The notes below the pieces were generated by a model. It ran no database searches. It was not told the DNA's origin and worked only from the letters and a program-made list of their open reading frames with translations. A stretch of 64,000 nt of DNA from Thermoanaerobaculia bacterium. Lineage in GTDB: Bacteria; Acidobacteriota; Thermoanaerobaculia; Multivoradales; Multivoraceae. This document shows, in pieces, positions 1 through 1,904 of the stretch. Position 1 is the stretch's first letter; each line of letters starts with the position of its first letter. The stretch spans positions 6,400,001 to 6,464,000 of the forward strand of contig OY761158.1 in assembly GCA_963664405.1 (NCBI GenBank), given 5' to 3'. A program made the position numbers and the translations under genes.

Positions 1-156
1 GATCGTCATCTGGCTCGCTGGGCGAGGGCGAAATACAAACGTCTGCGGAGACATCGAAGGAGATCGGATCAGTGGGTGCGGAAAGTCCGTGACCGGGATC
101 CACATCTCTTTGCGCATTGGCGCTTCATGTCGTCTCAGGCGAAGGCTGGATGGTAA
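1..156 (+). CDS. C-terminus (maturase/X domain) of the intron-encoded protein of group II intron 1; 5' part lies outside the window
   Basis: Frame 1 reads DRHLARWARAKYKRLRRH...DPHLFAHWRF...GW* and stops (TAA 154-156) directly before a domain V; the WARxKYK...LFAHW pattern is typical of IEP C-termini. Confidence 0.85.
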   Translation, partial: DRHLARWARAKYKRLRRHRRRSDQWVRKVRDRDPHLFAHWRFMSSQAKAGW

Positions 157-230
157 GAGCCGGATGAGTGGAGACATTCACGTCCGGTTCTGTGAGGGGG
201 TGGGGGTGAGATTCCCCCGCCCTACTCGAC
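1..230 (+). mobile_element. Group II intron 1 (innermost), 3' end
   Basis: Domain V GAGCCGGATGAGTGGAGACATTCACGTCCGGTTC at 157-190, then domain VI ending CCTACTCGAC at 230. Confidence 0.93.
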
Positions 231-784
231 GGGTCCTCACTTCTTCGACCGTGGCTGAGGCTCGTAGAGCCTTGGCTGTGGCGACGAGGATCTTGGAGCG
301 GCTCGGTGTCTCCATCAATCCGCAGAAGACGCGGATCGTGCACGTGAAGCATGGTTTCGAGTTTCTCGGGTACAAGATCAAGCTCGGAAAGCAGCTTCGG
401 CTGCCGCGGGCGAAGATCCGCAGCGGTGCCCTTTCGGGCGCCCTGTATGCCTACCCGACTCAGAAGTCGATCCAGCACTTCAAGCAGCAGATTCGCGGTC
501 GGACGCGGCGGAAGGCACCGGTTACCACCGAGCAGCTGATCGAACAGCTGAATCCGGTCCTGCGTGGATGGGGGCACTACTACAAACGTGCCCACGTCCG
601 ACGGCTCTTTCACCAGCTCGACCCATGGGTGGTGCGGCGCCTCTGGTCGCACCGTCACAAGCGCTGGCGCTGTAAAGGGTGGGACAGCCTGCCCAAGGCC
701 ACGCTGTACGGCGAGATGGGCTTGGTGAACCTTGTCGGTCTGATTCCTTCCATCGATTCTTCCCCCAAGGGGGCGTCTTCGTGA
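231..784 (+). CDS. ltrA: 3' half of the group II intron 2 reverse transcriptase/maturase, interrupted by intron 1
   Basis: VLTSSTVAEARRAL...NPQKTRIVHVKHGFEFLGYKI (RT6-7) and LNPVLRGWGHYY (domain X); no endonuclease domain; resumes mid-codon (xGG GTC CTC) right after intron 1. Confidence 0.9.
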
Positions 785-873
785 AAGCCGGATGCGGGAA
801 ATCTGCACGTCCGGTTTGAGCGGCGGACGGAGGCCAGCCTGCGGGTAACCGCGGGCGCCTCCTCCGACCCGAC
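231..873 (+). mobile_element. Group II intron 2 (middle), 3' part
   Basis: IEP followed by domain V AAGCCGGATGCGGGAAATCTGCACGTCCGGTTT (785-817) and domain VI ending CCGACCCGAC at 873. Confidence 0.93.
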
Positions 874-1261
874 ACTGACGAAGCCGGGTAACTCCGGTGG
901 AGGGAAGGAGCCCTAGTTCTGGTGCGCTTTGGAAGGAGAAGGAGACCGGGATTGACGCAAGTCTAGGAACCCGAATGAGTCAAACGACTCCGGAAGAAGC
1001 TCTGTGACAAGACCAAGCGAGAGGACGGTACAAGCTCCGATCGCAAGGAGCCGCCCGGCTAGATCGGGTCGAGGGGATCGACTCGCGAATGCCTTGTCGT
1101 GAAGCCAGTCCGGGAGCCGTGTGCGGGAAAACCGCAAGCACGGTTCGATGAGAGGCGGCGGGAAACGGAGCCAAGGACAGGATAGTGAGGCACTCGCAAC
1201 CGAAAGGGCGAGAAAACAGATGGGCCTGACCTACAGCCACCGCGCCCGCCGTCGACTCCAC
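874..1261 (+). mobile_element. Group II intron 3 (outermost visible), DIII-DVI, IEP internally deleted
   Basis: 874-915 ACTGACGAAGCCGGGTAACTCCGGTGGAGGGAAGGAGCCCT is a domain III 3' portion; DV GAGCCGTGTGCGGGAAAACCGCAAGCACGGTTC 1114-1146; long DVI ending GACTCCAC at 1261; DIV only about 200 nt. Confidence 0.88.
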
Positions 1262-1375
1262 CCTCATTTCAAGGCGTCCTCCCAGGGGATCTTCGTCAAA
1301 GGCAAGAACATTCGGGTGCCTGCCGGTACGGAGTACATGCTGTTCACCAGGGACGACTCGGGGGTTCGCATGTAA
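1262..1375 (+). CDS. Possible 3' exon of the host gene (hypothetical protein C-terminus)
   Basis: Open frame PHFKASSQGIFVKGKNIRVPAGTEYMLFTRDDSGVRM* directly after the intron 3 end; looks protein-like but is short. Confidence 0.4.
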   Translation, partial: PHFKASSQGIFVKGKNIRVPAGTEYMLFTRDDSGVRM

Positions 1376-1430
1376 CCCAGCGAGCGTCGGCGGGCTGTGA
1401 GCTCGGGAGGCAGCCGCCAATGAATCCACC

Positions 1431-1904
1431 TCAGAGGGCCATGGCGAAGAGCCCCGCCGCGGCCAGTGACGCGGCGGTCCTGACGGTATTCCAGAGAGTC
1501 CAACGCGAGAGGTAGTGGTCCCACAACGCCTCTGCACCCGAGCTGTCTGGCTCGGCAGATGCCAGCCGATTGTTCAGAGGCACGTTGAACGCTACCGTCA
1601 CCAGAAGGCACCCGAGCAAATAGAGGGCACACCCAGCGAGCAAGTACGCCCGGTGCGTCCCGGTAGTGCTCCCCAAAGCGAGAAAGGCGACTGGGAGGCA
1701 CGCCGCCCCCGTCCCAAAAAAGGCGAGGACGAACCACGGGTTGAGTACCGTGACGTTGATGGCCTTCATGGCGGCGATTCCCTCACTCTTCGGCAACTGG
1801 CCGAGGGCTCGCATGATGAATGTCGAGAAGGCGAAGAAGATTCCGGCCACTAGGCCGGAGCCCAGCACCGCGGCGAAGATCAGCAGGTCTAAGAGATGAT
1901 TCAT
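1431..1904 (-). CDS. DUF1772 / anthrone oxygenase family membrane protein
   Basis: GLVAGIFFAFSTFIMRAL...AMKAINVTV...NVPLNNRL...WTLWNTVRT; ATG overlaps the upstream stop (ATGA). Confidence 0.85.
   Translation of the reverse strand: MNHLLDLLIFAAVLGSGLVAGIFFAFSTFIMRALGQLPKSEGIAAMKAINVTVLNPWFVLAFFGTGAACLPVAFLALGSTTGTHRAYLLAGCALYLLGCLLVTVAFNVPLNNRLASAEPDSSGAEALWDHYLSRWTLWNTVRTAASLAAAGLFAMAL

Follow-up and report, generated by a model that had tools for sequence, protein, structure and literature searches.

A probable three-level nest of mobile group II introns in the genome of a Thermoanaerobaculia bacterium

We analysed a 64,000-nt stretch of the genome of a Thermoanaerobaculia bacterium (Acidobacteriota; GenBank assembly GCA_963664405.1, contig OY761158.1, positions 6,400,001–6,464,000 of the forward strand; hereafter 'the window'), the first 1261 nt of which carry the 3′ ends of three different group II introns. 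Together with the sequence upstream, these are very probably a real three-deep bacterial nest of mobile group II introns that arose through one site-specific retrohoming event after another and serves no host gene. The nest is 5,248 nt long (genome 6,396,014–6,401,261) and is made up of an 851-nt outer intron without an open reading frame (ORF), a 477-bp miniature inverted-repeat transposable element (MITE), a 2,033-nt middle intron and a 1,882-nt inner intron, whose segments add up in order along the sequence (409 + 477 + 59 + 1,390 + 1,882 + 643 + 388 = 5,248 nt).

Boundaries of the nest and its copies in the genome

The whole genome is a single 6.78-Mb contig (C1), and the sequence upstream of the window is therefore present. 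A window position equals the genome position minus 6,400,000 and the L001 position minus 15,000, L001 being a stretch that takes in the 15 kb upstream of the window. The genome is bacterial, with a full-length bacterial small-subunit rRNA (1,596 bits) and a bacterial large-subunit rRNA alongside. A cmscan search of the entire window at Rfam gathering thresholds returned exactly three matches to RF00029 (Intron_gpII; gathering score 40), all on the + strand, and no other Rfam family matched. These matches, covering intron domains V and VI (DV/DVI), lie at window 155–230 for the inner intron (64.7 bits, E 2e-10), 783–873 for the middle intron (42.2 bits, E 6.5e-5) and 1112–1261 for the outer intron (40.4 bits, E 1.7e-4), bearing out the three distinct DV/DVI ends at 230, 873 and 1261 that an initial annotation had proposed from the letters of the window. 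In the whole-genome search, the outer match was aligned at 1112–1199 with 39.4 bits, slightly below the gathering score. Its 3′ end at 1261 is firm, because four genomic copies match through ...CGACTCCAC and then diverge immediately.

A search upstream for the matching 5′ halves had been set beforehand as the check on nesting. Three GUGCG 5′ ends were found on the + strand, at L001 11014 (outer), 11959 (middle) and 13349 (inner), together with three matches to Rfam models of domains 1–4 (D1–D4), namely RF02003 for the outer intron (L001 11085–11224, 97.9 bits), RF02001 for the middle intron (L001 12164–12353, 30.9 bits) and RF01999 for the inner intron (L001 13421–13539, 108.3 bits), again all +. 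The three 5′ and three 3′ ends stand in strict nested order, as had been proposed, rather than in tandem. Each intron combines an RF00029 3′ end with a GUGYG 5′ end, a domain I match, and a reverse transcriptase (RT) plus maturase; for the outer intron, the latter are found in a full-length copy, the window copy being ORF-less. The initial annotation also held the introns to be dissimilar, in agreement with the 31–47% pairwise identity of their intron-encoded proteins (IEPs). To calibrate the junctions, five nest segments were compared with the whole genome by blastn. Empty and occupied sites differ by the intron alone, with target duplication absent, which gives precise junctions for the middle and inner introns; the empty sites of the outer intron are paralogous only.

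The inner intron (genome 6,398,349–6,400,230, L001 13349–15230, 1,882 nt, +) starts 1,651 nt upstream of the window and ends at window 1–230. Its IEP gene (L001 13735–15156, +) encodes 473 aa, the last 51 codons and the stop lying at window 1–156; the protein matches Pfam RVT_1 (E 1.9e-39) and GIIM (E 1.4e-16), and no endonuclease domain was found in it. Downstream of position 230, the sequence resumes inside the RT of another intron, as the initial annotation had read it, and does so in frame after the YADD codons. This is the middle intron, of which 1,390 nt lie upstream of the inner intron (L001 11959–13348, genome 6,396,959–6,398,348, +) and 643 nt downstream (window 231–873, +). Its IEP gene is split accordingly into a 5′ part (L001 12595–13348, +) and a 3′ part with the post-YADD RT and X/maturase regions (window 231–784, stop at 782–784, +). 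In silico removal of the inner intron yields an intact 435-aa middle RT; without splicing, the reading frame is cut short at 275 aa.

The outer intron as a whole spans the nest (L001 11014–16261, +), with passengers included in its 5,248 nt and an RNA of its own of 851 nt. After position 873, the sequence resumes in the domain III-like stem-loop of this intron, matching the earlier reading of a third intron's domain III: folds and alignment place the 3′ half of the stem-loop at about window 874–925, followed up to 1111 (+) by a domain IV remnant from which the IEP gene has been deleted. The deletion is evident from the full-length copy at 6.214 Mb, which encodes a 454-aa IEP with RVT_1 and GIIM. 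DV and an unusually long DVI (∼110 nt), with a candidate bulged A 7 nt from the 3′ end, occupy window 1112–1261 (+), and the 3′ splice site follows position 1261.

Genome-wide, RF00029 gave 12 matches at E ≤ 0.001: three inner, three middle and four outer introns, one copy of a fourth intron type (intron 4) and one other. Eight of these 12 DV/DVI ends belong to three nests (three in the window nest, three at 2.68 Mb, two at 2.891 Mb), and a decayed composite at 3.047 Mb accounts for a ninth. The second nest (L002, genome 2,675,001–2,684,000, −) is formed on intron 4 (RF02005, 143 bits), which hosts the middle intron in its domain III-like loop and, behind the FADD codons of its RT, the inner intron. 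The middle copy at this locus starts with GCGCG, not GUGCG, so that a conserved position of the 5′ splice site is altered. The 3.047-Mb composite (L006, genome 3,045,001–3,053,000) joins the 5′ part of intron 4, the 5′ half of the middle intron, the inner intron and the 3′ half of the intron-4 RT. It is without the intron-4 DV, and its arrangement would be consistent with the leftover of a recombination deletion between two inner-intron copies.

Target sites of the three introns

The inner intron is inserted after ...TATGCCGACGACT of the middle RT gene, that is, after the RYADD codons plus 1 nt (CGG TAT GCC GAC GAC T). The copy at 2.68 Mb comes after ...TTT GCT GAC GAC T (FADD) of the intron-4 RT gene, and the two 5′ exons, ...CGGTATGCCGACGACT| and ...CGCTTTGCTGACGACT|, agree in ending 1 nt past the codons for this motif. 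A domain I hairpin loop, AGUCGUU, is complementary to GACGACU and represents a candidate exon-binding site 1 (EBS1). All three inner-intron copies in the genome are 100% identical, and the site is empty in two other middle-intron copies and in the RT of a fifth intron. In both the inner IEP itself and the outer-type IEP, the YADD codons deviate at the final two target positions. The fifth intron is a solo group II intron (genome 884,908–∼887,000, −) whose RT holds the unoccupied inner target TATGCCGACGACT; the IEP of this intron and the outer-type IEP share 47% identity.

Relatives of the inner IEP were collected from 80 genome loci in many phyla (57–73% identity), of which 63 have a GUGYG 250–650 nt upstream. 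At 22 of these 63, codons for [YF][AVG]DD end 1 nt before the GUGYG, the other 41 being left unassigned by this crude test. In many of the relatives (for example Bryobacterales metagenome-assembled genomes; L020–L022, L026, L027, L029, L031, L032, L034, L035 and others), the protein match spans 1,660–2,100 nt instead of ∼1,400 nt, and the RT genes of these relatives seem, from the length of the match, to be interrupted by inserts of ∼250–700 nt.

For the middle intron, an uninterrupted 2,033-nt copy (genome 2,679,570–2,681,602, −) differs from the window copy at 14 nt and at 7 residues of the 435-aa ORF; the domains of the middle IEP were scored on this copy (RVT_1 6.2e-42, GIIM 2.8e-19). The insertion site is empty in the outer-intron copies at 2.592 and 6.214 Mb and occupied in the window copy, the 2.891-Mb outer copy and intron 4 at 2.68 Mb. 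Within the outer intron, it lies in a domain III-like stem-loop, in the 5′ strand of an internal loop. This stem-loop consists of a 7-bp basal stem, the internal loop (5′ strand ...AUAGU|ACNNNGAAG, 3′ strand GUGGAG(G/C)GAAGG) and a variable distal hairpin. The architecture is common to the outer intron and intron 4, their basal-stem sequences are entirely different, and the basal stem covaries in an alignment of 20 host sequences. We take the stem-loop to be domain III by position, because it lies directly 5′ of the ORF-bearing domain. Since the insertion is in the 5′ strand of its internal loop, the outer ribozyme should depend on removal of the middle intron. The hairpin loop GCAGUAUGG is a candidate EBS1 of the middle intron; in the diverged 2.891-Mb copy, a change of A to U in this loop is compensated by a change of U to A at target position −4.

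Close relatives of the middle IEP are present in just two of the 401 genomes of the phylum, this genome included. In the other (G414), one of two middle-type copies is likewise nested in another intron at the same motif. A metagenome set comprised 80 loci of relatives (69–100% IEP identity), 57 of them with a testable 3′ flank. The strict 3′-strand motif taken from this genome is present at 20 of the 57; in a relaxed form widened after inspection (GAG[GC][GA]AAGG, 20–120 nt downstream), it is found at 31 of the 57, compared with 9 of 1,487 control windows. The 5′-flank motif, which was likewise written post hoc, occurs at 42 of the 57. Among the 20 longest of the 80 loci, Rfam models detected D1–D4 or DV/DVI of a second intron in 14: there were 11 with D1–D4 of three model types 700–1,000 nt 5′ of the IEP, and five with a second DV/DVI downstream. 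In the literature searched, which did not cover subscription papers, we found no description of a bacterial intron lineage that homes into domain III. The frequent nesting of middle-intron relatives in domain III of other introns is a modest lead that is possibly new.

Two observations concern the hosts of these relatives. Several of the metagenome loci have outer-type DV–DVI sequence directly at the 3′ flank of the middle-type intron. On one 4,717-nt metagenome contig (L101), a middle intron with an IEP 100% identical to that of the uninterrupted 2.68-Mb copy has an intron-4-type domain I (RF02005, 139.9 bits) on its 5′ side and, on its 3′ side, outer-type sequence with the IEP gene. Judged from this order of segments, the contig looks like another recombinant host.

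The four outer-intron copies match from 10 nt 5′ of GUGCG through ...CGACUCCAC, are 97–99.5% identical and have unrelated sequence outside. The 2.592-Mb copy is solo, ORF-less and 851 nt long, the 6.214-Mb copy is solo and full-length, and the 2.891-Mb copy holds, at the site used in the window copy, a middle intron with an internal deletion. The 10 nt directly 5′ of the intron are its target (TCGGGTGGCA, L001 11004–11013). The 10 nt common to all copies might have been part of the intron; we read them instead as intron-binding sites 2 and 1 (IBS2 and IBS1), as GUGCG comes next and candidate EBS loops pair with them. Specifically, the common 5′ exon TCGG(C/G)TGGCA pairs with candidate EBS2 CCGAA (against UUCGG) and candidate EBS1 UGCCA (against UGGCA).

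The target 10-mer TCGGSTGGCA has 133 sites in the genome. CC comes next at 63 of them, many have AT.T in front and some a GCAGCC...GGCTGC hairpin behind, and six bear outer-intron copies or fragments. Over-representation of the bare 10-mer is not significant (88 of 2,000 same-composition permutations reach 133 sites). The flanks of paralogous insertion sequence (IS) 200-like transposase genes hold the same target unoccupied, and the extended context of the sites suggests a family of repeats akin to repetitive extragenic palindromes (REP-like), tied to IS200-like transposase genes that resemble REP-associated tyrosine transposases (RAYT-like). A comparison with 31 related genomes yielded no orthologous site lacking the outer intron. 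Class C (IIC) introns insert just 3′ of a terminator-like stem-loop, but the 600 nt upstream of the outer intron hold no such site, and a scan for promoters and terminators upstream of the nest found none.

The DVI of the outer intron (window 1150–1261, and the copies at 2.592, 2.892 and 6.216 Mb) contains an insertion of ∼75 nt in its distal part. The block of DV and long DVI recurs at 86–88% identity in introns of three other genera (G004, G007 and G025).

The MITE (L001 11423–11899, 477 bp) has 25-bp perfect inverted ends and a 5-bp duplication (ACCGG) of intron sequence. It was inserted between outer-intron positions 409 and 410, between two small hairpins that the duplication leaves intact. 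Its relatives in the genome are seven other near-full-length copies and about six parents of ∼1.85 kb, which encode an IS256-family transposase. The window copy of the outer intron is probably crippled, because the MITE is not removable by splicing.

Assembly, flanking genes and order of insertion

Four public runs were available, all as Logan assembled contigs, and each joint in them can be traced to a DNA copy elsewhere in the genome (un-nested outer intron, uninterrupted middle intron). Several points limit the case for a nest of the kind proposed here. The contigs of the four runs contain no RNA-only splice junction. None of them bridges the internal junctions of the nest, short-read contigs ending at repeat borders, and where two contigs do extend into unique flanking sequence, they share just 25–27 nt with the intron, under the 31-nt criterion. 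The contigs thus speak neither for nor against splicing or the assembly. The D1–D4 match of the middle intron is under the gathering score of its Rfam model (30.9 versus 32), the domain III label comes from position and architecture and not from a curated model, and the flank motifs of the middle intron's relatives were, as mentioned, adjusted post hoc. As for the candidate EBS1 of the middle intron, the loop GCAGUAUGG pairs with the window target mainly by G–U pairs and with the intron-4 target at only 5 of 7 positions, and a rival candidate, ACUUCGG, fits the 2.59/2.89-Mb target perfectly. We prefer GCAGUAUGG for its position in the Rfam alignment and the one compensatory change, although the choice is not settled.

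The RNA-library runs X17 and X18 contain contigs of 659 nt and 806 nt from an un-nested, ORF-less variant of the outer intron. These cover L001 11022–11415, 11898–11952 and 15874–16230, are of the 2.592-Mb type and are separated from the window copy by 12 differences. Both runs also contain short stretches that match the inner and middle introns exactly. DNA carry-over is possible for these runs.

Identical repeats could have been misjoined during assembly, in which case there would be no three-level nest at this locus. The repeats that might have caused this are the 1.9-kb inner intron, with its three identical copies, and a 3.3-kb block common to the 3.047-Mb locus, with which the 5′ half of the composite shares 100% identity over 3,294 nt; moreover, neither a read nor a contig bridging the internal junctions was seen in the public runs. 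We nevertheless regard such an artefact as very improbable. The genome was assembled into one 6.78-Mb contig, and the assembled order is coherent: the halves of the outer intron match each other, as do those of the middle intron, with its own variants (the 14 differences) on both sides of the inner intron. The same types of junction recur in independent, diverged sequence, namely the 2.891-Mb copy (95–97%), genome G414 and the metagenome contigs, and mis-joins do not land on exact GUGCG and ...AC intron ends.

The nest is intergenic and antisense to both neighbours. Upstream lies a gene for an IS200-like (RAYT-like) Y1 transposase (L001 10048–10956, −; Pfam Y1_Tnp, E 2.5e-9), and the outer-intron site is 58 nt upstream of its start codon. 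Downstream, a non-coding flank (window 1262–1433), which begins with CC as at paralogous unoccupied targets, is followed by an anthrone-oxygenase-family gene (window 1434–1904, −; Pfam Anthrone_oxy, E 3.7e-18) with its 3′ end toward the nest. An 84-aa ORF across the 3′ junction has no Pfam match. Since the neighbours are on the minus strand and the junction ORF lacks a family match, no host exon depends on splicing. The initial annotation had pictured a splicing cascade that allows expression of the host exon, and this part did not hold, there being no exon to express. That the nest is a functional twintron cascade, spliced from the inside out to express a host gene interrupted by the outer intron, is extremely unlikely. 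The nesting is real, removal of the inner intron does restore an ORF, and open stretches of ∼116–122 codons span the in silico ligated flanks in three frames. However, the restored ORF belongs to the middle intron and not to the host, and open frames of this length are common at the G+C content in question. The orientation of both neighbours and the lack of a Pfam match in the junction ORF speak against it as well, as do the other three complete outer copies, whose unrelated flanks have only the 10-nt target in common, and the MITE, which splicing could not take out.

Whereas the anatomy and boundaries of the nest, its copies, the empty sites and the conservation of targets are seen in the sequence, its activity, the priming pathway and the following order of events by successive retrohoming are inferred. 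The outer intron would have entered TCGGSTGGCA|CC first, in a short repeat that also flanks the paralogous IS200-like transposase genes. Either it was ORF-less on arrival or its RT gene was lost later, and it would depend on the RT of the full-length 6.214-Mb copy. The middle intron would then have reverse-spliced into the internal loop of the outer domain III-like stem-loop, and the inner intron directly 3′ of the YADD codons in the middle RT gene. Finally, the IS256-derived MITE would have landed in the outer intron. Insertion probably relied on EBS/IBS pairing and on priming at replication forks, because all three IEPs are without an endonuclease domain; priming of this type has been proposed in print for endonuclease-less introns of this kind. 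The 100% identity of the inner copies, against 97–99.5% among the outer copies, suggests recent activity.

Splicing the inner intron out of the transcript would restore the 435-aa middle RT, and excision of the middle intron would be required before the outer ribozyme could fold. The inside-out dependence that had been proposed therefore holds only in part: the middle intron does interrupt the outer ribozyme, but the inner intron sits in the ORF loop, so that the middle RT protein, and not the fold of the middle ribozyme, requires it to be spliced out. Sequential, inner-first splicing is something we infer solely from the place of the middle intron in the ribozyme stem-loop.

The middle and inner introns need not have arrived separately. 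A middle intron that already carried the inner intron may have moved into the outer intron as one unit, a course of events that we find rather unlikely. It would account for the 3,294 nt of 100% identity between the middle 5′ half plus inner intron and the 3.047-Mb locus. As the inner intron lies in the domain IV ORF loop, the middle ribozyme should be undisturbed by it, and composite retromobility has been discussed for the twintrons of Thermosynechococcus (PMC2882425). In the same paper, however, identical inner copies in diverged hosts are read as a mark of recent, separate insertions. The genome also has a middle copy without the inner intron and two RT sites that are empty, and a composite intron RNA of 3.9 kb would need to be reverse transcribed in full. 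Stepwise retrohoming of the three introns is the course that we favour.

A wider, tentative reading is possible, though we lean against it: the middle intron may represent a widespread, undescribed lineage that homes into the domain III internal loop of unrelated introns (at least three D1–D4 types), within a three-tier hyperparasitic network. If this were true, the network would consist of a RYADD-targeting inner intron, a domain III-homing middle intron and a repeat-targeting outer intron, and a host intron would be strictly dependent on the splicing of its parasite, since its catalytic RNA rather than an ORF is interrupted. The nest has no bearing on host gene expression. It could offer a natural test bed for introns as safe, self-renewing homing sites, for the supply of IEPs in trans to ORF-less copies, for the reshuffling of nested copies by recombination and for the question whether an intron in a ribozyme domain enforces ordered splicing.

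Comparison with known nested introns

Nested group II introns are already known from an archaeon and a few bacteria, to which the present locus adds another bacterial case. They are routinely dropped in annotation; one published pipeline excludes 21 of 513 sequences (PMC4028801).

The inner intron fits the RYADD-targeting lineage by target, size and IEP domains, as matched to published descriptions rather than to sequences. This lineage comprises B.th.I3, P.l.I2, M.a.I5 and UA.I3, which are ∼1.8 kb long, endonuclease-less and B-like according to Tourasse and Kolsto (2008; PMC2504315). As in that description, the inner intron (1.88 kb) has an IEP without endonuclease and immediately follows RYADD codons in the RT gene of a different element. 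Its target reads ...GGTATGCCGACGACT, compared with the published AGGTATGCTGATGACT. Relatives of the inner IEP with the same target (57–73% identity) include a Photorhabdus locus (L070, 62% IEP identity). Unlike the RYADD introns described there, the inner intron occupies two different host RT genes within one genome.

With the Trichodesmium twintron (Pfreundt and Hess 2015; PMC4649490), the nest shares the arrangement of a bacterial intron within an intron. That twintron, for which sequential splicing was shown experimentally, resides in a protein-coding gene, which the present nest does not.

Further parallels are offered by the twintrons of Thermosynechococcus elongatus described by Mohr et al. 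(2010; PMC2882425). There, too, diverged outer introns host inner introns that are identical to one another, introns without an ORF rely on IEPs provided in trans and conserved sites in other mobile elements are targeted; one T. elongatus intron is disrupted by an IS element, the outer intron here by a MITE. The T. elongatus twintrons have two levels, with the inner intron between two start codons in domain IV, whereas the present nest has three levels and its sites are RT active-site codons and a domain III-like stem-loop.

A precedent for the depth of nesting is Methanosarcina acetivorans (Dai and Zimmerly 2003, cited after Zimmerly and Semper 2015; PMC4424553), in which up to five introns are nested without coding exons. 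Three levels are thus uncommon, as the initial annotation had stated, but not new. The Methanosarcina nests are described in this source as perpetual homing sites subject to deletions by recombination. As in Methanosarcina, several dissimilar introns, some ORF-less and some RT-encoding, were nested by repeated site-specific homing, and homologous recombination removes or reshuffles copies, the apparent counterpart here being the 3.047-Mb locus. Differences from the archaeal nests are the bacterial host, three levels as opposed to up to five, the MITE in the nest and the use of a ribozyme stem-loop (domain III-like), not an ORF, as one of the homing sites. The locus can accordingly be seen as a bacterial counterpart of the Methanosarcina nests whose boundaries are calibrated by empty sites in the same genome.

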